From NCBI RefSeq assembly GCF_003096195.1, contig NZ_CP023004.1, forward strand, positions 37,299 to 101,298: a stretch of DNA of 64,000 nt. Direction: 5' to 3'. The stretch is from Ereboglobus luteus. GTDB taxonomy: Bacteria; Verrucomicrobiota; Verrucomicrobiia; Opitutales; Opitutaceae. Position 1 is the first letter of the stretch; each line of letters starts with the position of its first letter. Below are positions 1-56,579 of this stretch, one piece after another. The notes beneath the pieces were generated by a model that searched no databases, was not told where the DNA came from, and saw only the letters and a program-made list of their open reading frames with translations. Position numbers and translations under genes: made by a program.

Positions 1-2150
1 TCACCGCCTTCGCCGGCCAAGTTTACAGCATGTCGCGCGAAGACCTCATCCGCGCCGCGCGTCGCCACAAGATTCCCACAAACATCCCCTACGCGCAACT
101 CACCGAAAAACAACGCGAGTTTGTCATGCTCGGCGAACCCGAATATCGGAAACGCAAAACCCGCGGCGAGCAAATCGACTACGAAACCGACGACCTCTGG
201 TATGGATTGAAGGGCTTTTTCGAATGGCTCGAAAACAACACCTACAAAATGCACGTGCGCGTCTTCCTCTCGCGCTTTCGCGCCTACAATCCCTGCCCCG
301 CCTGCCACGGCCAGCGATTGCAACCCGACGCGCTCTGCTGGAAATGGCAAAAACGCACCATCCCCGAACTCTACACGCTCCCCGTCAGCGAGCTTCTCCC
401 GCTCGTTGAAAAGTCCACGATCTCCGACTCCGCCACATCCCTCGAAACGCACAGCGCCAAACTCGCGCGCGACAGCATCCTCACGCGCCTGCGCTACCTC
501 ATCCACGTCGGCCTCGGATACCTCACGCTCGACCGCCCCTCAAAAACGCTCTCCGGCGGCGAAGTCGAGCGCGTCAACCTCACCTCGTGCCTGGGCACCT
601 CGCTCGTCGACACCCTCTTCGTCCTCGACGAACCCAGTGTCGGCCTGCACCCGCGCGACATCGACCGACTCATCGCGATCATCCGCTCGCTCACCGACGC
701 CGGCAACACCGTCGTCGTTGTCGAGCACGACGAAACCATGATTCGCGCCGCCGACCACATCATCGAAGTCGGCCCCGAACCCGGCGCGCAAGGCGGCCAC
801 ATTGTATTCAGCGGACCACTACAAAAACTGCTCGCCGACAAAACAAGCATCACCGGCCGCTACCTCAGCGGACGCGAAACGATCCCCGCGCCACAAACCA
901 GAAGACCGGTGGAAAGCGACCAGAAGGTCAGAGGCCAGAGTGCCAGAGACCAGAATACTAGAGGCCAGAAATCCAGAAAAGCCGCGCCCAAATCTTCAGC
1001 ATCCGCATCATCCTCTGGCACTCTGGCTTCTGGCCTTCTGGCCGCTGGTATTCCGGCCTCCGCCTCCCTTCGCATCGAAGGCGCGTCCAAGCACAACATC
1101 CGCAACCTCTCCCTCTCCGTCCCACTCAACCGGCTCGTCTGCCTCAGCGGCGTTTCCGGCTCCGGCAAATCGACGCTCCTCGACAACATCATCTATCAAG
1201 GAATCCTCGTCTCGCGCCACCTGCTCGCCGAGGACCCCGCCGAAATCGCGCGCATCACCGGCGTCGATGCGTTTGGCGAAATCATCCTCGTCGACCAATC
1301 CCCGCTCAGCCGCACCCCGCGCTCCAACCCCGCGCTCTACAGCGAGGCATGGGAGCACATCCGCGACCTCTACGCATCCACCCCCGCCGCGCAAACGGCG
1401 GGCTTCACCGCGTCGAGCTTCTCGTTCAACAGCGGCGACGGACGCTGCGACCACTGCAACGGTCTCGGCTCCGAGCGCGTCGAAATGCAATTCCTCTCCG
1501 ACGTTTACGTCCCCTGCCCCATTTGCGAAGGCCGCCGTTTCAAACCCGAAGTCCTCGCAATCACATGGCGCGACCGCAGCATCCACGACCTCCTCAACAC
1601 AAGCATCGACGACGCGATCGCCCTCTTCGTTGACCACCCGCAAATCACCACCCGCCTCGCCCCCCTCGCCCAAGTCGGCCTCGGCTACCTCACCCTCGGC
1701 CAGCCGCTCAACACACTCAGCGGAGGCGAATCACAACGCCTGAAACTCGTCCGCCACCTGACGGCGCCAAACGCCGCAAATGTGGATTTCGGAATGCTGA
1801 ATGCGGAATTAAAAACCACCCAAGCCAACAAACCGCCGCTTGCGTCCGGCCGTTCCGCACTCCGCACTCCGCAATCCGCATTCAAACCCGCGCTGCTCCT
1901 GCTGGACGAACCCACCACCGGCCTCCACCGCCACGACGTCAAACGCCTGCTCGCCGTCCTGCACGCCCTCGTTGACCGAGGCCACAGCATCATCGTGATC
2001 GAGCACAACATCGATGTCCTCAAATCCGCCGACTGGATCATCGAAATCGGCCCCGAGGCCGGAGCCGACGGCGGCCGCATCGTCGCCGAAGGCACGCCCG
2101 AGCACCTCGCGCAAAGCAAAACCGAAACCGCGCCCTACCTGCTCGCTGCG
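1..2150 (+). CDS. uvrA: Excinuclease ABC subunit A (UvrA), 5'-truncated at the window edge: C-terminal ~700 aa (insertion domain, Zn finger, ABC signature I/Walker B, complete second ATPase module). Carries two in-frame palindromic-element insertions.
   Basis: Frame open from nt 3 (start of UvrA #1 lies upstream of the window). Motifs [95 protein letters not shown], all colinear with E. coli UvrA residues ~330-940. C-terminus at ..[11 protein letters not shown] (~2150). No stop codon; the frame continues into a linker. Confidence 0.85.
895..1052. repeat. Palindromic element with tandem-heptad arms ((G)GCCAGA(G) x~8 on the left, CTCTGGC-type on the right), inserted in-frame in uvrA (encodes ..[43 protein letters not shown]..).
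   Basis: Left CCAGAGTGCCAGAG is the exact reverse complement of right CTCTGGCACTCTGG; the insert falls between conserved UvrA blocks (E. coli KRKIEVPKK | LKLTGARGNNL). Confidence 0.6.
1778..1896. repeat. Palindromic element (GGAATGC heptad arms; core CCGCCGCTTGCGTCCGG) inserted in-frame in uvrA, just upstream of the second Walker B.
   Basis: Arms AATGTGGATTTCGGAATGCTGAATGCGGAATTAAAAACC / GTTCCGCACTCCGCACTCCGCAATCCGCATTCAAACCC; same family as 39207-39333 (shared CCGCCGCyTGCGTCCG core). Confidence 0.6.
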
Positions 2151-2151
2151 C

Positions 2152-2278
2152 TCGCAAATTCCAAATTCCAAAATCCCAAATTCCAAAAAAATCTCAAATC
2201 ACCAAAATCCAAATCTCAAAAAAACCAAACATCACTTCCCGCCGGGGATTCGCGTTCATTCGCGTCCATTCGCGGTTC
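2152..2278. repeat. Composite low-complexity linker between UvrA and the UvrA-like module, built from two arm types (CCAAATT/CCAAAAT heptads, then TTCGCGT/TTCATTCGCG repeats), translated in-frame.
   Basis: The same two arm types recur together at 49291-49482 and singly at 8099-8134. Confidence 0.45.
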
Positions 2279-2280
2279 AA

Positions 2281-4123
2281 CCCCCGCCTCGCTCAACATA
2301 ATCGGCGCGCGCGAAAACAACCTCAAAAACCTCTCCCTCGACATCCCGCACCACGGCCTCAACGTCGTCACCGGCGTCTCCGGCTCGGGCAAGTCCACGC
2401 TCGCGTTCGACATCGTTTTCGCCGAGGGCCAGCGCCGCTTCATGGAATCCATGTCGCCCTACGCGCGCCAGTTCGTCGAGCAACTCCCGCGCCCCGACAT
2501 CGACCTGCTCACCGGCATCCCGCCCACCGTCGCGATCGAGCAGCGCATCACGCGCGGCTCCCGCAAGTCCACCGTCGCCACCATCACCGAAGTCGCGCAA
2601 TACCTCCGCCTGCTCTACGCCCGCCTCGGCGTGCAGCACCACCCCGACACCGGCCGCCCCATTGTTCCGCTCACGCTCACGCAACTCCGCGCCCACCTCG
2701 CCAAAATCCTCGCCACCGACCCGCGCGCGAAGAAGGCAAAAAACTCTACCTCTGCGCCCCGCTCATCCGCGGACGCAAAGGCCACCACCAACCCATCGCC
2801 ACCTGGATCGAGAAACAAGGCTACACCCACATGCGCGCCGACGGAGACCTCTTCCCCGTCGAAAAATTCGAAAAACTCGACCGCTACAAAGAGCACAACA
2901 TCGAGGTGGTCGTGGCCGATTTGAAATCGGCCACGACCACCTCGAAGAGTGAAAAGCGAAGGGTGAAAAATGAAACACAAACCACTCAACCCACTCAACG
3001 TCCGCATCACTCGCCTGCGTCCGATTTTCACCCTTCACCCTTCACCCTTCACTCTTCCCTGGACGAGGCCCTCCGCCTCGGCCAGGGCTCCTGTTTCCTC
3101 CTCACAGGCGACAACAAAATCATCACCTGGCTCTCGACCACGCGCACCGATTCCGCCACGGGCGAGACATTCCCCGAACTCGATCCCAAGGACTTCTCGA
3201 TCAATTCCCCCCGCGGCTGGTGTCCCGCCTGTCGCGGACACGGGCGCATCTACCCTTGGATGCTCGCGCTCGACAAACAACAAAACGACACGCAGGAAAA
3301 CCGCGACATCGCGCTCCAACTCCGCGCCTACGGCATCTCCGACGCGGATGACATAAGCGACCACGGCCAGCCCTGCCCCGGATGCCACGGTGAACGCCTA
3401 AACCGCGTCGCGCGAGCAGTGCGCCTGCACTTTAGCGCCCCCGCCCCGATCGAAAAGAGTGAAGAGGGAAAGATGAAGAGTGAAAAGCAAGGCGCCAAAC
3501 GCCAGGCAACCAAACTCAAAGCCACTTCCGCTCCCTCTTTCACCCTTCACTCTTCACCCTTCAGCCTTTCCCTCCCCTCGCTCCTGCGCCTCACGCCGGG
3601 CGCGCTCCTCGCGCAACTTCGCCAGCTTGATCAAACCGACACCCGCACCCGCGCCATCACGCAGGACATCCTTCCGCAAATCGAGGAGCGCCTCCGATTC
3701 CTCGACCACGTCGGCCTCGGCTACCTCACGCTCGACCGCCCCACCGAAACGCTCAGCGGAGGCGAGTCGCAACGCATCCGCCTCGCCGCGCAACTCGGCA
3801 GCAACCTCAGCGGCGTGCTCTACGTGCTCGACGAACCTAGCATAGGATTGCACGCCCGCGACAACGACCGCCTGATCGAAACGCTCGAAACCCTCCGCGC
3901 CAAAGGCAACACGCTGCTCGTGGTCGAGCACGATGACGAACTCATGCGCCACGCCGACCGCATCATTGACCTTGGTCCCGCGGCGGGCATCCACGGCGGC
4001 GAGCTCCTTGCCAGCGGCACGCCGGAGGAAATCCGCCAAACCCCCTCCTCCATCACCGGTCTCTTCCTCAAAAAAGGCATCAAGCACCCCCTCCGCGGCG
4101 CCTACCGCCCGCTCCCGGCATGA
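2281..4123 (+). CDS. UvrA-like N-terminal ATPase module (Walker A, Zn fingers, signature I, Walker B) fused in-frame to the upstream uvrA through a low-complexity linker. Reading frame is broken by a -1 indel in an A6 run (2738-2743) and resumes in the +2 frame to the stop at 4123. Contains two in-frame palindromic-element insertions.
   Basis: [48 protein letters not shown] aligns to the E. coli UvrA N-terminus; no ATG/GTG/TTG start between 2150 and 2290. [24 protein letters not shown] then continues as [16 protein letters not shown] only in the other frame (needs A7, observed A6). Downstream [48 protein letters not shown]; ends at the equivalent of E. coli residue ~600. Confidence 0.6.
2905..2940. 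repeat. Perfect 14-bp-stem palindrome GTGGTCGTGGCCGAT-TTGAAA-TCGGCCACGACCAC inside the UvrA-like module, directly 5' of element 2944-3057.
   Basis: The left arm is native coding sequence (EVVVADL); the right arm is its exact inverted copy. Confidence 0.5.
2944..3057. repeat. Palindromic element, GAAGAGT/GAAGGGT-arm subfamily (core AAATGAAACACAAACCACTCAACCC..CGCCTGCGTCCGA), inserted in-frame in the UvrA-like module.
   Basis: Arms GAAGAGTGAAAAGCGAAGGGTGAAAAA / TTTTCACCCTTCACCCTTCACCCTTCACTCTTC; insert of ~44 aa between EVVVADL and [10 protein letters not shown]. Confidence 0.7.
3452..3566. repeat. Palindromic element, same subfamily as 2944-3057, second in-frame insertion in the UvrA-like module.
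   Basis: Arms GAAAAGAGTGAAGAGGGAAAGATGAAGAGTGAAAAGC / CTCTTTCACCCTTCACTCTTCACCCTTCAG; ~37 aa insert between VRLHF and [10 protein letters not shown]. Confidence 0.7.
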
Positions 4124-5835: not shown

Positions 5836-5852
5836 CCGCCGCCATCGCGGCG

Positions 5853-5968
5853 GAAGTTGGAAGAGTGAAGGGTGAAAACATGAAAGACAAACCATCCCAA
5901 CCATCAACCGCCACACCACGCCAAAGCCCGTTTTTCACTCTTCACCCTTCACGCTTCACTCTTCTTCC
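5853..5968. repeat. Palindromic element, same subfamily (core AACATGAAAGACAAACCATCCCAACCATCAACC), filling the macA-ATPase intergenic space; the right arm ends 3 nt before the ATPase ATG.
   Basis: Arms GGAAGTTGGAAGAGTGAAGGGTGAAAACA / TTTTTCACTCTTCACCCTTCACGCTTCACTCTTCTTCC; the core is homologous to the 2944-3057 core. Confidence 0.7.
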
Positions 5969-5971
5969 TCC

Positions 5972-6739
5972 ATGCAACCCGTTGTAAAACTCATCGACAT
6001 CCGCAAGACCTACACCACCGGCGAAATCGCGGTCCACGCCGTGCGCGGGGTCACGCTCGACATTTACCCGGGGGAATTCGTCGCGCTCATGGGCGCGTCC
6101 GGCTCCGGCAAGTCGACCCTCATGAACACGCTCGGCTGCCTCGACCGCCCCACCTCGGGCGAGTATTACCTCGACGGCGTCAATGTCGCCAACCTTGACC
6201 GCGACGACCGGGCCGACATCCGCAATCACAAACTCGGTTTCGTATTCCAAGGCTTCAACCTCCTCGCCCGCACCAGCGCCGTCGAAAACGTCGAACTGCC
6301 CATGCTCTACCAGCGCAACCGCACCTCGTCGAAGGAGATGCGCCAGCGCGCCATGGAGGCGCTCGAAATCGTCGGCCTCGCCCAGCGCGCCGACCATCAT
6401 CCCAGCCAGCTCTCCGGCGGCCAGCAGCAGCGCGTCGCCATCGCGCGCGCCCTCGTCAACCGCCCCCAAGTCATCCTCGCCGACGAACCCACCGGCAACC
6501 TCGACACCAAAACCTCCGTCGAAGTCATGGGCGTTTTTCAAAAACTCAACGATCAGGGCATCACGATCCTCATGGTCACGCACGAACTCGACATCGCGCG
6601 TTACTGCAAACGCAACCTCATCCTCCGCGACGGCAAACTCGTCAGCGACGTCCAAGTCGAGACCCGCATGAATTCCGAAGCCGAGCTCCGCAAACTCGCC
6701 GAAGCCGAGGCACAGGCGAAACTGACGGGAGATGAATGA
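5972..6739 (+). CDS. MacB/LolD-type ABC transporter ATP-binding protein.
   Basis: Walker [10 protein letters not shown], signature [15 protein letters not shown], Walker [13 protein letters not shown]-loop. Confidence 0.85.
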
Positions 6740-8007: not shown

Positions 8008-8134
8008 TGATTGTGGATTTTGGATTTTAAAAACCCGCGCGAGCTGGTTTGATCCGAGCTTCGTCATGCTTTTTTCATCGCATCGGCGCGGCAGCGCCCC
8101 AATCCAAAATCGAGAACCCAAAATCCCAAATTCA
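8008..8134. repeat. Palindromic element (GGATTTT/CCAAAAT heptad arms) occupying the whole permease-oxidoreductase intergenic region; the right arm ends at the ATG.
   Basis: CTGATTGTGGATTTTGGATTTTAAAAACCC ... CCAATCCAAAATCGAGAACCCAAAATCCCAAATTCA|ATG; the right arm is ~85% identical to the arm preceding the pnp ATG (49291-49328, minus strand). Confidence 0.65.
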
Positions 8135-12265: not shown

Positions 12266-12325
12266 GGTAGGGCGAACCGTCTCGGTGAGCCGAAAATATT
12301 GCGACTCACCGAGACGGTTCGCCCC
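12266..12325. repeat. REP-like hairpin, GGTAGGGCGAACCGTCTCGGTGAGCCG..CGACTCACCGAGACGGTTCGCCCC (~22-bp stem), downstream of the ThuA-HEAT gene.
   Basis: One of three copies with conserved ends GGTAGGGCGAA / TTCGCCC. Confidence 0.6.
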
Positions 12326-18629: not shown

Positions 18630-18696
18630 GGTAGGGCGAACCGTCACGGTGAGCCGCAGCAACACACCCGGCTCACCGTGACGGTTCGCCCCTATC
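18630..18696. repeat. REP-like hairpin, GGTAGGGCGAACCGTCACGGTGAGCCG-loop-CGGCTCACCGTGACGGTTCGCCCC (perfect 23-bp stem), between the convergent trxA and coaD.
   Basis: Differs from copy 12266 by a compensated T/A to A/T pair in the stem. Confidence 0.6.
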
Positions 18697-33927: not shown

Positions 33928-35838
33928 ATGTCCGATAAACTCACGCACGAGTGCGGCATCGCGCTCATCCGACTCAAAAAACCGCTCTCGTATTACCAAA
34001 ACAAATACGGCACGCCGCTCTGGGGCTTCACAAAACTGTTTCTCCTCATGGAAAAGCAGCACAACCGCGGCCAGGACGGCGCGGGCGTCGCCGCCGTGAA
34101 GCTCGACATGCCCCCGGGCGAGCAATACATGTTCCGCGACCGCTGCGTGGAGGCCAACCCCCTCGACCGCGTCTTCAAGCGCATTTGGAGCGACTACAAC
34201 CAGAAGGTCGCCGAAGGCACCATCCACCCCGAGTTCGCCGACACCGTCAAAAAGAACTTCGACTTCGGCGCCGAGCTCTACATGGGCCACCTGCGCTACG
34301 GCACCAGCGGCGGCTACAGCCTCAGCTCCTGCCACCCCTTCTACCGCCGCAGCCCATGGCAAACCCGCAACCTCGCCCTCTGCGGAAACTTCAACATGAC
34401 CAACACCGCGGAGCTGAACCAAAGCCTCATCACCATGGGCCAGCATCCGATCTTCGCCACCGACACCCAGGCCATCCTTGAGCGCATCGGCTTCTTCCTC
34501 GACGAGGAACACGAGGACATCTACCGCTACCTGCGCACCCGCGGCCTCTCCGGCGAGGAAATGTCCCGCCGAATCAGCGAGGATCTCGACCTCACCCGCG
34601 TCATCACCAAGGCCGCCCAGCAATGGGACGGCGCCTACTCCCTCTGCGGACTCATCGGCAACGGCGACGCCTTTGTCACGCGCGACCCATCCGGCATCCG
34701 CCCCTGCTTCTGGTATCAGGACGACGAAGTCGTCGCCTTCGCCTCCGAACGCGCCCCGCTCATGACCGTGTTCGACGCCGCCATCGAGCAAGTCCAGGAA
34801 GTCACCCCCGGCCACGTCATCGTCATCAAGCGCCGCGGCACCATCACCGACACGCAAGTCACCACGCCCCTCCCCCGCGCCGCGTGCTCCTTCGAGCGCA
34901 TCTATTTCTCGCGCGGCAACGACCAGGACATCTACTCCGAGCGCAAGGCCCTCGGCGGCCAGCTCGCCGACCAAGTCCTCGACGCCACCAACCACGAATG
35001 GGGCAACACCATCATCAGCTTCATCCCCAACACCTCCGAAATCGCCTACTTCGGCCTCCTCCACTCCCTGCGCGAGCGCCGCCGCGACGAAGTCAAAAAA
35101 ATCCTCCTCGAGGCGCAGAATGAAAACCGCCTCACCGAAAACCTCCTCGACGAAGTGATCCTGCGCAACTGGCCGCGCGGCGAAAAAATCGTCAGCAAGG
35201 ACATCAAGCTGCGCACCTTCATCGGGCAGGAATCCACCCGCAACCAGCTCGCCAGCCACGTTTACGACATCACCTACGGCACCATCCGCCCCGGCATCGA
35301 CAACCTCGTGTGCGTTGACGACTCCATCGTGCGCGGCACCACGCTCCGCAAATCGATCCTGCGCATGCTCGCCCGCCTCCAGCCCAAGCGCATCGTGATC
35401 GCCTCCACCGCGCCGCAAATCCGCTACCCCGACTGCTACGGCATCGACATGTCCGAGCTCGGCAAACTCATCGCCTTCGAAGCCGCCATCTCGCTCATCA
35501 AGGAACGCGGCCAGACTCCGCTCCTGCAGGAAGTCTACCAACTCTGCCGCGACGAAGTCGCCCGCAACGGCACGGTCAATCACGTCGCAAAAATCTACGA
35601 CGGCTTCACGCCGGAGGAAATCTCCGCGCGCATCGCCGAACTCGTCCGCCCCCGCAAACTCGACTGGAAGGGCGAGCTCAGCGTGATCTTCCAGACGATC
35701 GAAAACCTGCACAAGGCGGTTCCCAACCACACCGGCGACTGGTATTTCTCGGGCAACTACCCCACCCCCGGCGGCTACCGCATCGTCAACCAAGCCTACG
35801 TGAACTACTACGAAAAATCCGAGGGCAGAAGCTATTAA
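33928..35838 (+). CDS. purF: Amidophosphoribosyltransferase (class II glutamine amidotransferase, long Bacteroidetes-type).
   Basis: N-terminal nucleophile ..THECGIALIRL, Ntn hydrolase domain, PRTase region; 636 aa. Confidence 0.8.
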   Translation: MSDKLTHECGIALIRLKKPLSYYQNKYGTPLWGFTKLFLLMEKQHNRGQDGAGVAAVKLDMPPGEQYMFRDRCVEANPLDRVFKRIWSDYNQKVAEGTIHPEFADTVKKNFDFGAELYMGHLRYGTSGGYSLSSCHPFYRRSPWQTRNLALCGNFNMTNTAELNQSLITMGQHPIFATDTQAILERIGFFLDEEHEDIYRYLRTRGLSGEEMSRRISEDLDLTRVITKAAQQWDGAYSLCGLIGNGDAFVTRDPSGIRPCFWYQDDEVVAFASERAPLMTVFDAAIEQVQEVTPGHVIVIKRRGTITDTQVTTPLPRAACSFERIYFSRGNDQDIYSERKALGGQLADQVLDATNHEWGNTIISFIPNTSEIAYFGLLHSLRERRRDEVKKILLEAQNENRLTENLLDEVILRNWPRGEKIVSKDIKLRTFIGQESTRNQLASHVYDITYGTIRPGIDNLVCVDDSIVRGTTLRKSILRMLARLQPKRIVIASTAPQIRYPDCYGIDMSELGKLIAFEAAISLIKERGQTPLLQEVYQLCRDEVARNGTVNHVAKIYDGFTPEEISARIAELVRPRKLDWKGELSVIFQTIENLHKAVPNHTGDWYFSGNYPTPGGYRIVNQAYVNYYEKSEGRSY

Positions 35839-36016
35839 AAAGTGGAAAGTAAAAAGTAGGAATTAGAAAGTGGCCTCGACAAACCAGAAGGCAACTGACG
35901 GCTTGCGAATCGACCGCCTCCAAACCCGCATTCTAAAAATCTCCTGCTTGCAGACGCCGCCCGGTGCCTGATTCTTTACTTTTTAATTTCTAATTTCTAC
36001 TTCTTACTTTTCCACC
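35837..36016. repeat. Palindromic element (AGTGGAA/AGTAAAA/AGTAGGA heptad arms) filling the purF to purM-like intergenic region; the right arm ends at the ATG.
   Basis: TTAAAAAGTGGAAAGTAAAAAGTAGGAATTAGAAAGTGG ... CTTTACTTTTTAATTTCTAATTTCTACTTCTTACTTTTCCACC|ATG. Confidence 0.65.
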
Positions 36017-39013: not shown

Positions 39014-39900
39014 GCGAAATCCCGGGCCCAATCGACGACTACTGGCAAACACTCCCCCTCGGGCGCGGCGTGGCCGTCATCACCCGCGATCCCAACGGCC
39101 TCGTCGCCCTCAACAAACCCGCGGGCACCCTCTCCCACCCCAACGAATCCCGCGACCAGCCCCGTTCGCTCCTCAACGCCCCCTATGAACCCGACGGCGA
39201 ATATTATATGTGGAATGCGGAATGCGGAATGCGGATTTCGGAATTGCAAACCGACAAAACTGATCATGCCACTCGCCCGCCGCCTGCGTCCGATCATTCC
39301 GCATTCCAAAATCCGCATTCCACATTCAAAGAGGAATCCCGCCGACTCTGGCTGCTCAACCGCCTTGATTCCGCCACCTCCGGCGTGATCCTTGCCGCGA
39401 CCACGGAAGAACTCGCGCGCGAAATCCGCGCGCTCTTTCGCGAACGCCACATCAGCAAAACCTACGCCGCGCTCGTCTTCGGCAGCCCCTCCGAAAAAAC
39501 GCAACTCTGGCGCGACCGGCTCGCCGTGCAAAAACGCGGAGGCCAAATCCGCGCCGCCGCCCGGGCCGGAAACATCCCCGCCGAGGCGCGCATGAGCCTT
39601 CTGCGCACCAGCCGCAACACCCCCGCCGCAGCAGGCGCACCCATTTCGCTCATCCAGCTCGAACCCAAGACCGGACGCAGCCACCAGCTCCGGGTGCAAT
39701 GCGCCAGGCGCCGTCTTCCCATCATCGGCGACGCCACTTACGGCGATTTTCGAGCCAACCGCGACTTCGCCAAACGCACACGCGAAAAACGCCTATTTCT
39801 CCATTCGCTCGAAACCCGCTTCGACTACACCCACGCCGGACGCGCGTTCACCTTCGCCGCCAAGGCTGACCTCCCTGGGGCGTTCACCGCGCATCTTTGA
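39010..39900 (+). CDS. RluA-family pseudouridine synthase (GTG start overlapping the upstream stop, GTGA) carrying an in-frame palindromic-element insertion (39207-39333).
   Basis: LNKPAGTLSHP..RLDSATSGVILAA..catalytic Asp in LNRLD; PsiRSP-like C-terminus. Inserted ~42 aa (YYMWNAECGMRISELQTDKTD..HSTFKEES) lies in the loop before the HRLD motif. Confidence 0.8.
   Translation: MSEIPGPIDDYWQTLPLGRGVAVITRDPNGLVALNKPAGTLSHPNESRDQPRSLLNAPYEPDGEYYMWNAECGMRISELQTDKTDHATRPPPASDHSAFQNPHSTFKEESRRLWLLNRLDSATSGVILAATTEELAREIRALFRERHISKTYAALVFGSPSEKTQLWRDRLAVQKRGGQIRAAARAGNIPAEARMSLLRTSRNTPAAAGAPISLIQLEPKTGRSHQLRVQCARRRLPIIGDATYGDFRANRDFAKRTREKRLFLHSLETRFDYTHAGRAFTFAAKADLPGAFTAHL
39207..39333. repeat. Palindromic element (GGAATGC heptad arms; core ..CACTCGCCCGCCGCCTGCGTCCGATC) inserted in-frame in the RluA-family gene.
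   Basis: TGGAATGCGGAATGCGGAATGCGGATTTCGGAATTGCAAA ... ATTCCGCATTCCAAAATCCGCATTCCACATTCAAAG; the core shares CGCCTGCGTCCGAT with element 2944-3057. Confidence 0.7.
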
Positions 39901-40779: not shown

Positions 40780-40792
40780 AAACATTCCTCTT

Positions 40793-41229
40793 GGGACAGA
40801 ATGAACAAAATTAAAAAAATGGGAGAGACTCCAAGCTACGATTTGGCCGGCCAAATCATAGGGCTCGCCATGAAAGTTCATTCAACGCTCGGCGGCGGAT
40901 TTCTCGAATCTGTTTATCAAAACGCGCTCGCCTTTGAACTGACTCGAGCAGGCATGGCTTTCCAAACAAGCGTCCCCCTCAAGGTGAAATACGAAGGCGC
41001 AATTGTCGGTGAGTTCGAAGCCGACATGCTCATCGCCAATACGCTCATTATCGAAAACAAAGCCGTCCAAACCCTCGCCGTCGCCCATGAGGTTCAACTT
41101 GTCAATTATCTTACCGCCACCGGCATCAACGAAGGACTTCTTCTCAATTTCGGCGCGGAAAAACTCCAGTTCAAAAAGAAATTCCGCACATACCGGGCCG
41201 CCGGCCCCAATTGATCTTCATTCTGTTCC
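40793..41229 (+). mobile_element. GxxExxY gene cassette bounded by 12-bp inverted repeats (GGGACAGAATGA ... TCATTCTGTTCC, 11/12 match), inserted between rplT and pheS.
   Basis: The IR-L includes the gene's ATG; it lies downstream of the rplT terminator and upstream of the pheS start. Confidence 0.4.
40801..41214 (+). CDS. GxxExxY family protein (PD-(D/E)XK superfamily) inserted between rplT and pheS.
   Basis: GGGFLESVYQNAL (GxxExxY), E..D..K core ..EFEADMLIANTLIIENK; homologous to the 53343-53726 gene. Confidence 0.75.
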   Translation: MNKIKKMGETPSYDLAGQIIGLAMKVHSTLGGGFLESVYQNALAFELTRAGMAFQTSVPLKVKYEGAIVGEFEADMLIANTLIIENKAVQTLAVAHEVQLVNYLTATGINEGLLLNFGAEKLQFKKKFRTYRAAGPN

Positions 41230-41271
41230 ATTCCGTTAATTCTGTCTAAAAACACTTCCCAAAATTTCCAC

Positions 41272-42315: not shown

Positions 42316-42320
42316 CGGAA

Positions 42321-42497
42321 AGCAGTGAGCGGCGGGTAGCGAGTAGTGAGTAGAAAAAATCACCGCTCGCCCCGCTCGCAACCAACCTTAAAAATTTTCA
42401 CAACCATCACACCATCCTCCCACCACCATGCGGGCGCAGCCCGCCACTGACATCCTACTCGCTACCCGCTACTCACTACTCGCTACTTTTTCTTCCT
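42321..42497. repeat. Palindromic element (AGTGAGC/AGCGAGT/AGTGAGT heptad arms) filling the pheS-pheT intergenic region; the right arm ends 3 nt before the pheT ATG.
   Basis: GCAGTGAGCGGCGGGTAGCGAGTAGTGAGTAGAAAAAA ... CTACTCGCTACCCGCTACTCACTACTCGCTACTTTTTCTTCC. Confidence 0.65.
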
Positions 42498-45308: not shown

Positions 45309-46199
45309 ATGATCACCATGCTTTCATCCAAAACCATTCCGTTTCTTGTTTTCATTTCGTGCTGCCTGCCCCCGCTTTGCGCCGCCTCGGGGACATTTGC
45401 CCTTTCGCCGCCCGCGGGGGAAAATTATGTGACCTGCGAGGGCGTTTATCCCGGCCATTTGCAGGGGATCACGACAAATGGCGCGGATGCCATTTATTGG
45501 TCGTTCACCACCGCGCTGGTCAAAACCACCCCCGCCGGAAAGGTTCTCAAAAAAATCAACGTGATCAACCATCACGGCGACCTGACTTTCGCGAACGGCA
45601 AGGTTTATGTGGCGGTGAACGATTACGTCAGCGAGAAGCCGGGGCAGTTTAACCATCCCAACCCAAACAATCCCGCGAGACAGTGGGTTTACGAATACGA
45701 CGCCGGCCTCAATTTTCTAGCCCGCCATTCGGTTCCGCAGGTTATCCACGGCGCGGGCGGTGTGGCGCATCACAAGGGGCATTTTTGGGTGGTCGGCGGA
45801 CTGCCCGGTCCGTGGGCTGGCGGTTTCGATCCCGAGAAATACAACAAAAACCACCTCTATGAATATGATGCCGCGTTTCGGTTCGTGAGGGTTCACGAGC
45901 TGGCCACGGGCAACACCGACATGGGCATTCAGACAGTGGAGTTCGGCGGCGGCAGATGGTGGTTTGGCACCTATGAGGGCTCGCCCCGGCGTCCGGTCGG
46001 CGGTAAAGGCACGCCGGGCTGGCGGCACCAAGTTTTCTCGACCGGCGAAAACCTCGCCGCATTTGTGCGCTTCGGCTTCCATGCGAAAAAGCCCGAGGGT
46101 ATCTATCCGAATGCCTCGTTGGGAATCGCCGCGCTGCCCGGCGGCCAGTTTTTAATCGGAGGCGGAAGCGGCAAAAAGAATGAACGCCGAGGCCACTGA
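45309..46199 (+). CDS. Hypothetical secreted protein (lower-GC region).
   Basis: Signal peptide MITMLSSKTIPFLVFISCCLPPLCAAS; no recognisable motif. Confidence 0.45.
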   Translation: MITMLSSKTIPFLVFISCCLPPLCAASGTFALSPPAGENYVTCEGVYPGHLQGITTNGADAIYWSFTTALVKTTPAGKVLKKINVINHHGDLTFANGKVYVAVNDYVSEKPGQFNHPNPNNPARQWVYEYDAGLNFLARHSVPQVIHGAGGVAHHKGHFWVVGGLPGPWAGGFDPEKYNKNHLYEYDAAFRFVRVHELATGNTDMGIQTVEFGGGRWWFGTYEGSPRRPVGGKGTPGWRHQVFSTGENLAAFVRFGFHAKKPEGIYPNASLGIAALPGGQFLIGGGSGKKNERRGH

Positions 46200-46270
46200 T
46201 GATGGACGGTTGAAGGTGCTTGATAGGGTTCCTGTGAAATGAAGGAGAAAACAACAAACTAATCCTGATC

Positions 46271-46453
46271 ATGAAAATATTATATACTGTCTTGCTGTTC
46301 ATATTTGGTGCGGTGCCAATGATGCGGGCGGACTGGAGTTTATTGAGGAATGACGACGGACAGATTGTGGAGGTCGCAATCGACTTCACTATTGAGAAGA
46401 AAACAGAAACCTCGGACGGTGGCATTTCGTTAGTAGTGAGTTCCGAAAAATGA
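46271..46453 (+). CDS. Small hypothetical protein with signal peptide (AT-rich islet).
   Basis: ORF only; MKILYTVLLFIFGAVPMMRA signal-like N-terminus. Confidence 0.2.
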   Translation: MKILYTVLLFIFGAVPMMRADWSLLRNDDGQIVEVAIDFTIEKKTETSDGGISLVVSSEK

Positions 46454-46610
46454 AGGTCAAACCTACGGGTTTTCCGCGGAGATTTTAAAACCCCGTGACT
46501 CCGAAACCTTAGCGAAAAGAAAGAGGGATCGTCGGCCCATTACGAGAAGCAGCATAATTATCACATCCACGGGCGAATCTACAAAATCCCTCGAAAAGAA
46601 ACTCAATCAC

Positions 46611-46901
46611 TTGCTTAACATGCAGGATGATTCCGAAGCGCCGACTCGCGTTGCAGGTTTGTATTCTGCGGTATCGCCTGCGGCGTCTTTTTCAACACCC
46701 TCGCTCTTTGATGCCGTGGATATCGGAATTGTTTTCGATCATGAGGGGAAACAGGTGAACGCCCGCGGTTTTCACATTAAAATATTCATGGATATTCCCA
46801 TGAATCGCTTTACTGTGTATTTTTCAGAACGAGGAGGCATAGGAGGAACTTCCGAGGCCACACGAACACGGATGAAGAAATACCCGAATAAGAAGTCATA
46901 A
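46611..46901 (+). CDS. Hypothetical protein (AT-rich islet).
   Basis: ORF only. Confidence 0.2.
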   Translation: MLNMQDDSEAPTRVAGLYSAVSPAASFSTPSLFDAVDIGIVFDHEGKQVNARGFHIKIFMDIPMNRFTVYFSERGGIGGTSEATRTRMKKYPNKKS

Positions 46902-47008
46902 CCAAAGCGAGCAAACGATAGTCCAGCAAAGTGGTCTTGGCAAACCCGACGGCGCACTCGTGGCGTCAGCCTCGCTGATCAAACAGGCAAACTTGGCAGT
47001 CCGCGCTA

Positions 47009-49290: not shown

Positions 49291-49482
49291 GTTCGTATTT
49301 TGGATTTTGTATTCTCGATTTTGGATTGATGAACCACGGAAGATAATTCGAGAGGGTATTGATGGTTTCCGGGTTTTGTTTTTTAACCGCGAATGGACGC
49401 TAAAGGACGCGAATAAATACAAATGAAACACGGGTCGAAAATCGGCCTGTTATTCGCGTCTATTCGCGTTCGTTCGCGGTTC
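49291..49482. repeat. Composite element in the rpsO-pnp intergenic/pnp leader: CCAAAAT-heptad arm abutting the pnp ATG (49291-49328), plus a palindrome with CGCGAAT-type arms and core AAATGAAACACGGG (49387-49482).
   Basis: CCGCGAATGGACGCTAAAGGACGCGAATAAATAC-AAATGAAACAC..-TTATTCGCGTCTATTCGCGTTCGTTCGCGGTTC; both arm types are also found in the uvrA linker 2152-2278. Confidence 0.55.
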
Positions 49483-49694
49483 TAAATCTCTGACTGGTTT
49501 TTATTATGGGCAAAAACTCGCGGACAATGGTGTTCGCGTTGCTTTTGCCGGGAGGTGTCTTTTTTGCATCCTCGTTCAGTGTTCGAGAGATTTCCGTTTG
49601 GCGCCTGCGCTGTTTTTTGCGGCGGAAGAGACAAGCGGAAATGTCCCGGAATCTGTGGCGAGTGTCGTTGGCTGCGCGGGGCAGTTAAGACAAC

Positions 49695-50384: not shown

Positions 50385-51821
50385 TCACTTTGCGATCAGC
50401 TTTATCAGCGCGGCGCGGTCGGTTTTGCCGCGCTGGGTGAGCGGGAATGCCGGCAGCACAACAATGCGGTCGGGGATTTTCCACGCGGCGAGACGCGGGG
50501 TGAGCTGGCGGCGGATGTCGGCGGCGGTCGGCGAGGGCGCGTCGCTGGCGACGGCGGCGGCGATGGCGTCGGGGCGCGTTGGATGCGCGGCGACAAAGGC
50601 TTCGCGCACACCGGGCAGGGCGCGGAGCATCGTTTCCACTTCGCCGGGGTCGAGACGGCGGCCCGCGATTTTCAGCGTGCGTCCGGCACGGCCAAGCAGG
50701 GTGAGTTCGCCGGCAGGGTTGAATTCACCGCGATCGGGCGGCGAATAGCGTCCGCGTCCGTGGACAGAGGGGCTTTCGACGGTGAAGCGTTTGCCGCGGC
50801 GGAAGGTGATGCGCACGCCGTCGATGAGTTGCCCGATGGCGCGGCCAGTTTCCGCGGCGTCGCCTTTGCGGTCGTAGGCGATGCCGCCGGTTTCGCTGGT
50901 GCCGTAGAAATTGTGGACGTGTTTGCCGTATTTGTTTGCGAAAGCGAGCGCGTCGGCGGGCTGGAGCGGCGCGCCGGCGGAAATGACGAGGCGCAGGCTG
51001 GCGAGCGCGGCGGGCGAAACGTCGGTGCTTGAGAGCGCGCGCAGGAGCGTGGGCACGGCGGGAAAAACGGTCGGTTTCCAACGGGCGCAATCGGCGGCGA
51101 TGGATTGCGGAAACGGGCTGGCGGCGCTGAGGAGGGGCGTGCCTTGTTCGAGGAGCGGAATGACGAGGTGGCCGAGTCCGTAGGAGTGCCCGAAGGGGAT
51201 GATGCCAAGGTTGAGGTCGCCGGGGCTGATGCGCATGGTTGCGCAAATCTGGCGTCCGTCGGCGAGCATTTGCGTGTGGGTGAAAACGAGCGCCTTGGGA
51301 ACGCCGGTGCTGCCGCTGGTGAGTTTGATGAGCAATTCGTCGCGGCGTCGAACGGGCGGGCGAGGCGCGAGCAGGGTGAGTTCACCGTCGCGCAAGATCG
51401 AGGCAGCGCGGCTGACGTCGGCAATGGCGGCAAGGCGGTCGGGTGTTTCCTTGGAGTCGGCGAGCGCGGGGACAGCACCGATTTCGAGCAGACCGAGGAA
51501 GATGTAAAACCAGCGCGCGCTGTTCGGCTCGGCCATGACCACGCGGCGACGCGTGATGTGCGCGCGGGTGTCGGTGGGAAGTGAATCGAGCCAGACACGT
51601 GCGGCGGCGGCGAGTTCAGCGCGACTCCAGACGCGCGCGGTGTCGCCGTCGATGACGGCGGTGGCGGATGGCGATTGCGCGACAAGTGCGCGCCAGGTGG
51701 CGAGGAGGTTTGTTGGGTAGGGCGAAACCTCCGGCTGAGCCGATTGCTTTTTCGCGTTCGGTGACAATTCCGGCTCAGCCGGAGGCTTCGCCCTACCTTT
51801 GGTATCGCCGACCGGAGCCAT
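50385..51821 (-). CDS. AMP-dependent synthetase/ligase (acyl-/aryl-CoA ligase family); start ATG overlaps the gatB stop (TAATG). Its 5' end contains a GGTAGGGCGAA-family hairpin in-frame.
   Basis: AMP-binding motifs LTSGSTGVPKA, YGTSETGG, ..GDxxxxxxDG..; 478 aa. Confidence 0.75.
   Translation of the reverse strand: MAPVGDTKGRAKPPAEPELSPNAKKQSAQPEVSPYPTNLLATWRALVAQSPSATAVIDGDTARVWSRAELAAAARVWLDSLPTDTRAHITRRRVVMAEPNSARWFYIFLGLLEIGAVPALADSKETPDRLAAIADVSRAASILRDGELTLLAPRPPVRRRDELLIKLTSGSTGVPKALVFTHTQMLADGRQICATMRISPGDLNLGIIPFGHSYGLGHLVIPLLEQGTPLLSAASPFPQSIAADCARWKPTVFPAVPTLLRALSSTDVSPAALASLRLVISAGAPLQPADALAFANKYGKHVHNFYGTSETGGIAYDRKGDAAETGRAIGQLIDGVRITFRRGKRFTVESPSVHGRGRYSPPDRGEFNPAGELTLLGRAGRTLKIAGRRLDPGEVETMLRALPGVREAFVAAHPTRPDAIAAAVASDAPSPTAADIRRQLTPRLAAWKIPDRIVVLPAFPLTQRGKTDRAALIKLIAK
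51715..51797. repeat. REP-like hairpin, variant GGGTAGGGCGAAACCTCCGGCTGAGCCG-loop-CGGCTCAGCCGGAGGCTTCGCCCTACC, lying within the 5' coding region of the AMP-ligase gene (translated in-frame).
   Basis: Same conserved termini as copies 12266 and 18630; the stem interior differs on both sides so pairing is kept. Confidence 0.6.
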
Positions 51822-53311: not shown

Positions 53312-53792
53312 TTAACCACGGAGGACACGGAGAGGCACGGAGTCAGAGGACTCTGCGAAATATGCCATCCTTGAGCAGGGGAACGTTGAAATTGATGAGG
53401 AAACCGATGCGGTGTCCGGAGAGTTTTAGGTAGGTGATGAGTTGCGCCTCGTGAACGTCGTGCAGTTCTTCCACCGCCTTGAGTTCAAGGATGACTTCGT
53501 TTTCCACTAGCAAATCCAAACGATAACCAACGTCGATGAGGGAACCCTTATAGTTCACGGGCACTTCTTTTTGGCGCTCATATTCCAGGCCCCTCAGTCC
53601 GAGCTCGAATGCGAGGGCGGCCTCATAGGTTGACTCAAGCAGTCCCGGCCCGAGCACCTTGTGCACCTCAATGGCCGCTCCGATAATTTTCTCTGTGAGT
53701 TCTTCCTGCAACAACGTGGTTTTCATTTGGAGGATTAAAATAAACCGGTCATCTCTGTATTCTCCGTGTTTCTCAGTGTTCTCCGTGGTTAA
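53312..53792 (-). mobile_element. GxxExxY cassette: 31-bp terminal inverted repeats TTAACCACGGAGGACACGGAGAGGCACGGAG / CTCCGTGTTTCTCAGTGTTCTCCGTGGTTAA flanking the GxxExxY gene; inserted in the gatA-gatB spacer.
   Basis: The TIRs abut the gene stop (53343) and lie 5 nt from the gatA stop and 21 nt from the gatB start; the TIRs contain a CACGGAG periodic repeat. Confidence 0.6.
53343..53726 (-). CDS. GxxExxY family protein (PD-(D/E)XK superfamily), inserted between gatA and gatB and bounded by 31-bp terminal inverted repeats.
   Basis: GPGLLESTYEAAL (GxxExxY); ..YRLDLLVENEVILELK core; 127 aa. Confidence 0.8.
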   Translation of the reverse strand: MKTTLLQEELTEKIIGAAIEVHKVLGPGLLESTYEAALAFELGLRGLEYERQKEVPVNYKGSLIDVGYRLDLLVENEVILELKAVEELHDVHEAQLITYLKLSGHRIGFLINFNVPLLKDGIFRRVL

Positions 53793-55251: not shown

Positions 55252-55286
55252 CGGAAACAGGAGAGGGATTCGGGCGGTTGTTTTAA

Positions 55287-55380
55287 TTAACCACGGAGGA
55301 CACGGAGAGCGCGGAGGGACGGAAGAAGATGAGTTTGGAGTTTTGTTTTTCTCCGGGAACTCCGTGTTCTCCGTGGTTAA
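55287..55380. repeat. Solo 94-bp palindrome with the same TIRs as the GxxExxY cassette (TTAACCACGGAGGACACGGAGAGCGCGGAG ... CTCCGGGAACTCCGTGTTCTCCGTGGTTAA) but no ORF; sits in the gatC-gatA spacer.
   Basis: ~90% identity of both ends to 53312-53342 and 53762-53792. Confidence 0.7.
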
Positions 55381-55394
55381 TCTTTCTGAGTGAG

Positions 55395-55688: not shown

Positions 55689-55835
55689 GTGAAAAATAAG
55701 AGGATGATCCGTTCTGAGAAAGTTGCACAGAAGGAAATGAAGGGAATTTCAAGAAAATCCGGCTTCCATTCGCAAGCTATTGATTGCATCCCTTCGGCCT
55801 TTAAACTTAGACTTTGCCTAACTTGATTCCTCGTA

Positions 55836-56525
55836 ATGAATTTCTTGGCAACAACCCCACGGCCATTTAAGCGCATCTTGCGTGCACTCCTCCTATCCAC
55901 GCTCCTGTCGGCAACAGCTTTTGCAACAGCGCAAATGCCGGACATTTTAATATATAAAGGGGAAGAATATTCTCTTCATATAAATCCGCTTGATGAGTTT
56001 TTTTACAAAAATCCCGACGTGAAATTGCCAAAATCATCCACCCTCGTAATATCATCGGCATTATGGCGTGGATACCTTGCCACGTTTGAAATTAAAAATG
56101 ATTATTTTTTTATCAAGAACGTGCAAACACTGACCGGCGATGGGAAAGGCACAGCCGAATCAAGATGGAAAAGCGTGATCAATGATATCTTCAAGGAGAC
56201 AATGAGCAGGCGACTTGATTGGTTTTCGGGATTACTGATTTTGCCCCGAGGAAAAGTGGTTGATTATGTCCACTTAGGATATGCATCTACCTTTGAAAAT
56301 TATACGCTACTAGAGATAGACAAGGGGAAATGTGTTAAAGAAAGGCATTTTTCAACCGAAGGGTATTCTAAATTTAAAAAGAAACAATTCAAGGCGTTTA
56401 AAAAAACTGATGAATACAATAGACTTATTAATAAATTTAATGAACAAGGAGTGAGTAAAAAACGAGCAATTGCAAATATAAGAAATCGAGTAGTTTATTA
56501 CTCAAAAAAGATACTGGTTGACTGA
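55836..56525 (+). CDS. Hypothetical secreted protein, markedly low GC (~38%).
   Basis: Signal peptide; composition atypical for this replicon. Confidence 0.45.
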   Translation: MNFLATTPRPFKRILRALLLSTLLSATAFATAQMPDILIYKGEEYSLHINPLDEFFYKNPDVKLPKSSTLVISSALWRGYLATFEIKNDYFFIKNVQTLTGDGKGTAESRWKSVINDIFKETMSRRLDWFSGLLILPRGKVVDYVHLGYASTFENYTLLEIDKGKCVKERHFSTEGYSKFKKKQFKAFKKTDEYNRLINKFNEQGVSKKRAIANIRNRVVYYSKKILVD

Positions 56526-56579
56526 TGTATTTCAAAAATCACTCAAGTTTAGCCATTAAAGCGGCCAGTCGGAAACAAT

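Follow-up and report, generated by a model that had tools for sequence, protein, structure and literature searches.

Hairpin elements with tandem-unit arms within and between genes of an Ereboglobus-like bacterium: probable dispersed repeats and a candidate GxxExxY partner

How does a palindrome of more than a hundred base pairs come to be read in frame in the middle of a gene? The question is raised by a ~64 kb stretch of DNA (the window) from an Ereboglobus-like member of the Opitutaceae (Verrucomicrobiota), a gut bacterium, in which five segments of a UvrA-like gene and one segment of an RluA-family gene are built of short tandem units. A preliminary description of the window, made from its letters, took all six segments for imperfect palindromes inserted into essential genes; it overlooked a perfect palindrome at 2901-2945, a frameshift near 2736, at least seven intergenic elements, two solo arrays and two gene-carrying versions. 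We consider it probable that the segments are copies of selfish, hairpin-forming repeats that are dispersed genome-wide in Ereboglobus and other Opitutaceae. Such an element would have an A/C-rich centre (30-130 nt) enclosed by two inverted arms, in which units of 7-10 nt are repeated 3-6 times in tandem.

Hairpin segments inside two genes

All six segments are in frame with their hosts. They are listed here with the perfect palindrome; families (A to E) were defined by all-against-all comparison of the copies in the window.

915..1046, plus strand: insert 1 of the UvrA-like gene, CCAGAGG/CCAGAGTG arm units (7+8 = 15-nt period), in the linker between nucleotide-binding domains (NBD) I and II
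1776..1886, plus strand: insert 2, family B, GGAATGC units, core CTTGCGTCCG at 1839 (from folding and Tandem Repeats Finder, TRF)
2155..2222, plus strand: first half of insert 3, a solo array of CAAATTC/AAATCYC units, the pyrimidine-type arm of family E (TRF period 7/15)
2243..2282, plus strand: second half of insert 3, a solo 3' arm of family C with ATTCGCGTYC units and the end CATTCGCGGTTC
2901..2945, plus strand: perfect palindrome, 22+22 nt with a 1-nt loop, 100% complementary, abutting insert 4
2944..3057, plus strand: insert 4, family A, GAAGRGT / TTCACYC units, core CCTGCGTCCG at 3014
3455..3568, plus strand: insert 5, family A (from inverted-repeat arms and folding)
39208..39327, plus strand: RluA-family insert, family B, core CCTGCGTCCG at 39283, before the catalytic LLNRLD strand

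Five of the six segments fold as hairpins, with z values (standard deviations relative to dinucleotide shuffles) between -3.4 and -8.2. The 34-nt arms of insert 1 (915-948/1013-1046, by inverted-repeat search) are 91% complementary, and its RNA fold has an energy of -74.5 kcal/mol (z -8.2). Arms of 32 nt and 81% complementarity were found both in the RluA-family insert (39213-39244/39296-39327; -50.4 kcal/mol, z -5.3) and in insert 4 (2944-2975/3026-3057; -37.8 kcal/mol, z -4.8), while those of insert 5 measure 24 nt at 83% (3455-3478/3531-3554; -37.3 kcal/mol, z -3.4). Insert 2 is a single long imperfect hairpin (-42.0 kcal/mol, z -3.7) with TRF arrays at 1779-1809 and 1854-1880. The arms of the hairpin inserts are arrays of 3.9-5.3 copies with a period of 7 or 7+8 = 15 (TRF), in agreement with the ~7-bp tandem units first described. 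Moreover, the window holds 139 inverted 10-mer seeds lying up to 220 nt apart, whereas 30 composition-matched shuffles have a mean of 14 and a maximum of 21.

The sixth supposed palindrome, 2152-2278, is not a hairpin (-15.8 kcal/mol, z -2.2) and comprises two unrelated half-arrays. The halves of insert 3 are non-complementary, and no complementary partner of the 2155-2222 array was found within the insert; GGATTTT arrays complementary to it lie at 8009-8028 and 49297-49327, and the right half of the insert shares 87-90% identity with the arms of an intergenic hairpin at 49380-49486.

The perfect palindrome consists of native codons for IEVVVADL followed by their own reverse complement, and its RNA fold (-42.7 kcal/mol) has a z of -10.6. 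Two short-read assemblies of relatives (L001 and L002) end inside it (window ~2909) with poly-G/poly-C artefacts, and bogus GGGGG/PPPPP tails have resulted in the deposited proteins P0001 and P0002. These breaks preclude an independent check of the palindrome and, together with the loss of 1 nt next to an A run in the window, are what could be said for the segments being assembly or sequencing artefacts, that is palindromic chimeras or low-complexity errors. We regard this as highly improbable: inserts 1-3, the RluA-family insert, the element at 49380 and the gene-carrying element g2 described below are found in independent assemblies of two strains with ordinary divergence, and the reading frames are open across the inserts.

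The UvrA-like gene starts outside the window and stops at 4123. By alignment, the product of 1-4123 is a full UvrA with an extra N-terminal-type half (a second NBD-I with signature domain); relatives measure 1.3-1.58 kaa, and identity is 96% to the protein of Ereboglobus sp. PH5-5 and 91% to that of PH5-10. The RluA-family host is a TruC-like pseudouridine synthase. The hosts, first described as essential genes, are not known to be essential, and what was called uvrA is UvrA fused to an extra half-unit. The 1-nt loss near 2736 splits the UvrA-like gene into open reading frames (ORFs) 30..2924 and 2831..4123; positions 2730-2745 read GGCAAAAAAC in the window and GGCGAAAAAAC in Ereboglobus PH5-10, and the loss reflects either an error of sequencing or a gene that has recently become a pseudogene.

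When aligned with orthologues and with UvrA sequences of solved structure, the segments lie between conserved blocks, as had been proposed, and at gaps relative to the solved chains. Insert 1 falls between residues 624 and 629 of 2r6f, in the linker joining the two nucleotide-binding domains, and insert 2 between residues 860 and 868, in the loop from the ABC signature helix to Walker B of NBD-II. Insert 3 lies at the junction of the two fused UvrA units. At the positions of inserts 4 and 5 there are 44 and 70 residues, respectively, compared with 12 and 26 in 9gxk. In an AlphaFold (AF2) model of the pseudouridine synthase, residues 98-131, which correspond to the insert, have a predicted local distance difference test score (pLDDT) <50 with confident strands on either side; this insert is thus predicted to be disordered. 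An example of a predicted inserted peptide is SDHSAFQNPHSTF.

All of the UvrA inserts are absent from the aligned Opitutaceae orthologues P0004 and P0006, which have short linkers there, and insert 1 is also absent from P0018. Likewise, the RluA-family insert is absent from P0124, P0125, P0164 and P0179 (alignment), and L208 provides the DNA of an empty site. Judged from these comparisons, the segments are lineage-specific insertions and not ancient native linkers, the outcome that the preliminary description had anticipated. Inserts of different unit types are found at the same linkers in other lineages, for example Nibricoccus, Termitidicoccus and one metagenome-assembled genome (MAG), whose uvrA carries five in-frame 7-8-nt arrays and a palindrome with 38-nt arms; these linkers therefore appear to be recurrent landing or survival sites. 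Strains differ as well, with indels of 15 or 30 bp in the arms of insert 1. Insert 2 is present in PH5-5, and its site in PH5-10 holds a non-palindromic GAAATTT array.

The reading frame has left its mark on the arms. ORFs are continuous across all six segments, and no coding copy contains a frame-0 stop. The left-arm unit of family A contains TGA, so that a perfect array would put a stop in every frame. At two units, 2957 in insert 4 (which reads CGA) and 3467 in insert 5, the TGA would be in frame, and exactly these two are mutated, the other TGAs in the family A coding copies being confined to the two remaining frames. This avoidance accounts for the greater degradation of the left arms, compared with right arms whose units are free of stops. 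It also argues that the downstream UvrA frame, which contains inserts 4 and 5, was functional until recently. In none of the six frames do units of families B, D and E or of the CCAGAGG type contain a stop, and the two hairpins with stop-containing units (35836 and 42321) are both intergenic only, an anecdotal observation given so few elements. Together, the avoidance of stops and the 15- or 30-bp size of the arm indels show that the coding inserts are kept readable.

Related elements between genes and their turnover

At least seven intergenic spacers of the window are filled by elements of the same kind, and there are two solo arrays besides. Five gene-less hairpins and the solo arrays are as follows; the gene-carrying elements are given in the next section.

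5843..5974, unstranded: hairpin of family A in the spacer of two co-directional efflux genes (fold z -5.4)
8009..8028, unstranded: solo GGATTTT array of family E in a 60-nt spacer (TRF)
35836..36010, unstranded: hairpin of TAAAAAG-type, stop-containing units (inverted-repeat search and TRF)
42321..42487, unstranded: hairpin of GTAGCGA/GTAGTGA stop-containing units between pheS and pheT (fold z -4.6)
49297..49327, unstranded: solo ATTTTGG array of family E (TRF)
49380..49486, unstranded: hairpin of family C, TAACC-GCGAATGG... / ...CATTCGCGGTT, arms of 37 nt, 81% complementary
55286..55381, unstranded: gene-less hairpin of family D between gatC and gatA, with the termini of the g2 element

The hairpins at 49380-49486 and 55286-55381 both fold at -55.5 kcal/mol, with z values of -9.9 and -9.2, respectively. 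Overall, inverted arms measure 24-37 nt and are 76-91% complementary, and whole elements span 96-175 bp. The coding copies on which the preliminary description centred are real, but the elements are mainly intergenic and the coding copies are a surviving minority.

Arms and centres recur at unrelated places, the point on which that description had staked its reading. Family A (GAAGRGT) has three copies, inserts 4 and 5 and the spacer copy at 5843, whose centre is similar to that of insert 4 (2944-3057). The two copies of family B (GGAATGC), insert 2 and the RluA-family insert, are homologous in both arm and centre (81% over 54 nt). Family C (CGCGAAT) comprises the right half of insert 3 and the spacer copy at 49380, family D (CACGGAG) three arm sets at 53312, 53752 and 55286, and family E (AAAATCC) the left half of insert 3 and the arrays at 8009 and 49297. 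CYTGCGTCCG occurs exactly three times in the window (1839, 3014 and 39283), each time just 5' of a right arm, the arms of these copies being different. As a count this is marginal (expected 0.59; three reached in 4 of 100 shuffles), and one more match, in the relative L079, falls outside any element; it is the positions that are persuasive, not the count.

Approximately 35 kb of the window could be compared with strains PH5-5 and PH5-10, and here the contents of spacers prove to be exchanged. At 35837-35999, 40786-41260, 42316-42494 and 55253-55393 the flanks are 95-98% identical, yet the spacer contents are unrelated, the replacing sequence in the PH5 strains usually being another tandem-unit hairpin. 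Thus the spacer of 35836-36010 holds unrelated arrays in PH5-5 and PH5-10 between flanks of ~95% identity, and the hairpin at 42321-42487 is swapped for AAGTCGA-type arrays; the hairpin at 49380-49486 is kept. Hairpins with CGAAAAT arms occupy, in the PH5 strains, both the spacer of 55286 and that of g1. This CGAAAAT family is present at three loci there and has a shared 47-nt centre that is oppositely oriented at two of them, as expected of a dispersed, inserted element.

We infer arrival by insertion rather than by growth in place, and the involvement of an enzyme. In the course of events that we envisage, the normal habitat of the elements would be the short spacers of co-directional genes, where occupants are exchanged rapidly between strains. 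The minority inside genes would survive only where the frame is kept, no in-frame stop arises and the site is a tolerant linker or surface loop; a coding element would then be transcribed and translated with its gene to give a disordered, low-complexity loop. After arrival, slippage of units would reshape the arms, and fold-back copying could extend the palindrome into the flank.

A different account, which we think unlikely, is that the segments were generated locally: linker codons seed a unit, replication slippage expands it, intrastrand template switching makes the palindrome and nothing moves between loci. Consistent with this are the unit-number polymorphism between strains, the perfect inverted copy of native coding sequence at 2901-2945, the different unit types at the same linkers across lineages, and a native TGGAATG at the rluA empty site that resembles the CGGAATG unit of the element. 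Comparison of the filled and empty rluA sites and inspection of intergenic copies revealed no target-site duplication, with junctions imprecisely defined, and neither transposase nor RAYT (REP-associated tyrosine transposase, REP denoting repetitive extragenic palindromic sequences) is present among the ten unassigned ORFs of the window. Against local generation, non-repetitive centres are common to unrelated loci (uvrA insert 2 and rluA, uvrA insert 4 and 5843, and the 10-mer core in three copies), and the centre of the CGAAAAT copies stands in opposite orientations. Slippage and template switching probably do act, but after arrival.

It is also quite improbable, in our view, that the elements are selected cis-acting structures, either protein-binding sites or RNA structures with a role in RNase III processing, the stabilisation of mRNA or pausing of translation, and that the coding copies serve the host gene. 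Their precise placement in operon spacers would suit such a role, and similar sites in Geobacter were read by the authors of that work as binding sites of a global regulator (PMC2700814). However, spacer occupants are swapped for unrelated sequence between near-identical strains, the coding inserts are absent from close orthologues and variable between strains, and arm decay in the coding copies coincides exactly with the positions at which the frame requires it, so that protein constraint prevails over structure.

Beyond the window, the arm pattern of family A occurs in many phyla, in at least 120 stretches, of which 19 have a complementary arm within 500 nt. In all 19 of these GAGTGAA-type hairpins (L003-L122), as in all ten hairpins of the window, the purine-rich arm lies 5' of the pyrimidine-rich arm; polarity is reversed in the CGAAAAT family of the PH5 strains. 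A nested hairpin of ~290 nt in a Gemmatimonadota MAG (L018, 5560-5850) is composed of serial heptad types, with GAGTGAA outside and a CGTACAA type inside.

Several other features of the window were recorded. A second, unrelated family of REP-like palindromes (GGGCGAAcCGTCnCGGTGAGCC) is present at 12270-12324, 18634-18691 and 51716-51797, the last in frame in the annotated N-terminus of an AMP-binding enzyme gene (50385..51821, minus strand). Downstream of pheT, 46197-46971 corresponds to 16783-18730 of L124 as a non-homologous replacement between strains. At 55697-56576 there is an 880-nt, low-GC insertion with an ORF for 229 aa (55836..56525, no Pfam matches), where PH5-5 and PH5-10 have 17 nt. 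Strand asymmetry is very strong throughout the window: GC skew is approximately -0.25 to -0.3 at plus-strand genes and +0.2 at minus-strand genes, the coding strand hence being C-rich and G-poor.

GxxExxY genes between arms of the same design

Two genes of the GxxExxY type (TIGR04256; PF13366 PDDEXK_3; PD-(D/E)XK superfamily) are flanked by tandem-unit arrays in the window, one of them within a strong hairpin.

40793..41246, plus strand: gene-carrying element g1, GxxExxY gene at 40801-41214, CAGAATG-type units, left arm weak (14 nt)
53312..53792, minus strand: gene-carrying element g2, GxxExxY gene at 53343-53726, CACGGAG-type inverted arms, between gatA and gatB

Both genes score well above the profile cut-offs of 35 (TIGR04256) and 22 (PF13366), with 133 and 127 bits for g1 and 155 and 149 bits for g2. 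The g2 element has the termini TTAACC/GGTTAA and 35-nt arms that match at 30 of 35 positions; its left arm is identical at 23 of 23 nt to the gene-less hairpin 55286-55381. The same arrangement exists in the PH5 strains and in another Opitutaceae genus, whose protein is ~73% identical to that of g2. In these gatA-gatB loci (L210-L217, L205-L207) the arms (TTAACCACGGAG...) abut the start and stop codons of the GxxExxY gene.

A metagenomic set of 80 loci encoding g2-like proteins was examined for flank pairing (74 loci) and unit counts (73 loci). Pairing between upstream and downstream flanks had a median of 19.5, compared with 9.0 in mismatched-locus controls, and was above the control 95th percentile in 39 of the 74 loci and above the control maximum in 20. 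Furthermore, 48 of the 73 loci contain two or more C-R-C-N-R-A-R units upstream together with two or more complementary ones downstream, and unit density is ~2.4 per 130-nt flank versus 0.07-0.33 inside genes. The outer termini of these cassettes are conserved (TCACC, TAACC or TTACC at one end and GGTGA, GGTAA or GGTTA at the other), and a Bacteroidales locus shows the same arm-gene-arm design. None of the metagenomic loci has gatA or gatB as a neighbour and distal flanks are common to two locus pairs only, which rules out descent of the 74 loci from one ancestral gatA-gatB insertion. Since the flanks differ, the arms accompany the GxxExxY gene in many independent contexts; one arm design in more than 70 different contexts also speaks against local generation.

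Family C of the window, including the right half of insert 3, fits the class of arms that flank GxxExxY genes. An Opitutales MAG joins GCAGAAT heptads to a g1-type terminus (GTTAATTCTGTC), a hint that family B is related to g1-type arms; further relatives of g1, sought as a test of this link, were found neither in a scan of viral contigs nor by exact-sequence look-up. When unit type was set against GxxExxY protein identity (60.0% vs 58.1%; 2 of 2000 permutations), the effect was significant and tiny, and may reflect host composition. A cargo gene was also sought for the GAAGRGT arms and not found: among at least 120 loci with these arms, spread over many phyla, paired arms enclose only short hairpins or unrelated genes. 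One GxxExxY gene occurs among these loci, with different arms.

The only candidate for a mobilising enzyme that we have seen is the GxxExxY PD-(D/E)XK protein, whose genes stand between arms of this design; the arms would be candidate binding sites for it, by analogy with REP sequences and RAYT transposases. A tentative extension, which we hold to be doubtful, is that GxxExxY genes and inverted arrays of 7-10-nt units form an unrecognised class of selfish cassette. The protein would recognise the units on hairpin or cruciform DNA and spread or maintain both the cassette and the gene-less hairpins, which would feed the intergenic excess of heptamers and colonise coding sequence in frame. PDDEXK_3 is a very large family whose function is listed as unknown (PMC3424549), and our literature search found no paper tying it to repeats.

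A number of observations weigh against dispersed repeats mobilised in this way. As noted above, the rluA empty site carries a unit-like native sequence, and target-site duplications and a transposase were not found. The DNA sampled for this genome-wide claim comprised the window and ~100 kb from relatives. The inverted arms of g1 are weak (flank alignment score 11.5), and neither PH5-5 nor PH5-10 has the g1 cassette. Both the synteny and the arms of the g2 cassette are conserved between genera, which makes it an old resident rather than a frequent mover; its arms may serve its own expression or RNA processing, and their conservation between genera, though the proteins are only ~73% identical, also favours a cis-acting role. 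A clear match to GxxExxY-type arms is seen in families C and D only, and no cognate gene was identified for the kinds to which most coding copies belong, the CCAGAGG type and families A and B. Finally, the gene-less hairpins are not simple deletion derivatives of GxxExxY cassettes, as alignments of their centres to cassette interiors scored no better than shuffles.

These elements matter in several respects. The window suggests that translated selfish hairpin DNA, known so far mainly from Rickettsia and Coxiella, exists also in a gut Verrucomicrobium that can be cultivated, where one gene holds five segments and where stop avoidance and 15-bp indels leave a visible trace of selection on the elements. 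In practical terms, short-read assemblies break at the hairpins, and annotated proteins acquire spurious tails and enlarged low-complexity regions. The association with GxxExxY genes offers a first testable handle on the function of their family (PMC3424549). If these genes do form selfish cassettes, their hairpin derivatives would explain part of the excess of tandem heptamers and would remodel protein linkers.

Comparison with known systems

Palindromic repeats that lie in frame have been described in Rickettsia and Coxiella (PMC10969869, PMC5896051). The Rickettsia palindromic elements (RPE), to which the preliminary description likened the segments, are, as summarised from Ogata et al. (2000), palindromes of ~100-150 bp that lie in frame in housekeeping genes, sometimes in several genes per genome; they are translated at places that tolerate them in the fold, occur between genes as well and have no transposase of their own (PMC10969869). 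The likeness is apt as an analogy (~110-160 bp, palindromic, in frame and read through as predicted peptide), but the present elements are not RPE members. Each RPE family has a sequence and a peptide conserved from end to end, RPE arms are not built of tandem 7-10-nt units and RPE are confined to Rickettsia (PMC10969869), whereas the elements here have widely varied units, turn over between strains and include gene-carrying versions. Judged from the unit-based arms and the Verrucomicrobial host, homology to RPE families is unlikely.

With REPIN-RAYT systems the elements share dispersed spacer hairpins, a small gene bracketed by inverted repeats and an excess of repeats over the gene (PMC3116915). 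The bracketed gene, however, is predicted from its sequence to encode a GxxExxY protein of ~125 aa with a PD-(D/E)XK fold, not a Y1/HUH transposase, and, unlike REPINs, the elements have arms of tandem units and some copies in frame inside genes. [quoted passage not shown] Terminal inverted repeats on a short element and multiple dispersed, related copies are found here too; in classical MITEs, the terminal inverted repeats match those of an insertion sequence and target-site duplications are made (PMC10969869, PMC5896051), whereas in our material neither a target-site duplication nor a parent insertion sequence with a transposase and the same termini was seen. Intergenic tandem heptamer repeats (PMC6344855), the cyanobacterial short tandemly repeated repetitive (STRR) heptamers and TAACTGA repeats (PMC4679880) resemble the elements in their 7-nt period, intergenic position, wide distribution and unknown function. 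Those prokaryotic repeats are described as direct arrays, whereas here the arrays form inverted hairpin pairs and enter coding sequence too.

The elements were first said to match no known family. This holds for Rfam, where none had a family match, but paired heptanucleotide arrays and intragenic heptanucleotide elements have been catalogued, unexplained, in Geobacter metallireducens (PMC2700814). In that genome, five tandem heptanucleotides make up each site of eight inverted pairs, and four tandem octanucleotides each site of another 24 pairs, the paired sites being read as regulator-binding sites or regulatory RNAs (PMC2700814). They too are opposite-strand pairs of 4-5 tandem 7-8-nt units, tens of bases apart in the spacers of co-directional genes, and a sister species has a different sequence in one such spacer (PMC2700814). 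The unit sequences differ, MTYCTGA, GTTGCTYN and GGACCGG (in four-fold elements) in Geobacter (PMC2700814) as opposed to GAAGRGT, GGAATGC, CCAGAGG, CACGGAG and CGCGAAT among others here, and the Geobacter account reports no reading-frame analysis, strain comparison or associated gene (PMC2700814). Three features of the Ereboglobus elements are new relative to these systems: arms of tandem units that lie in coding sequence, the traces of selection in those arms and the association with GxxExxY genes.

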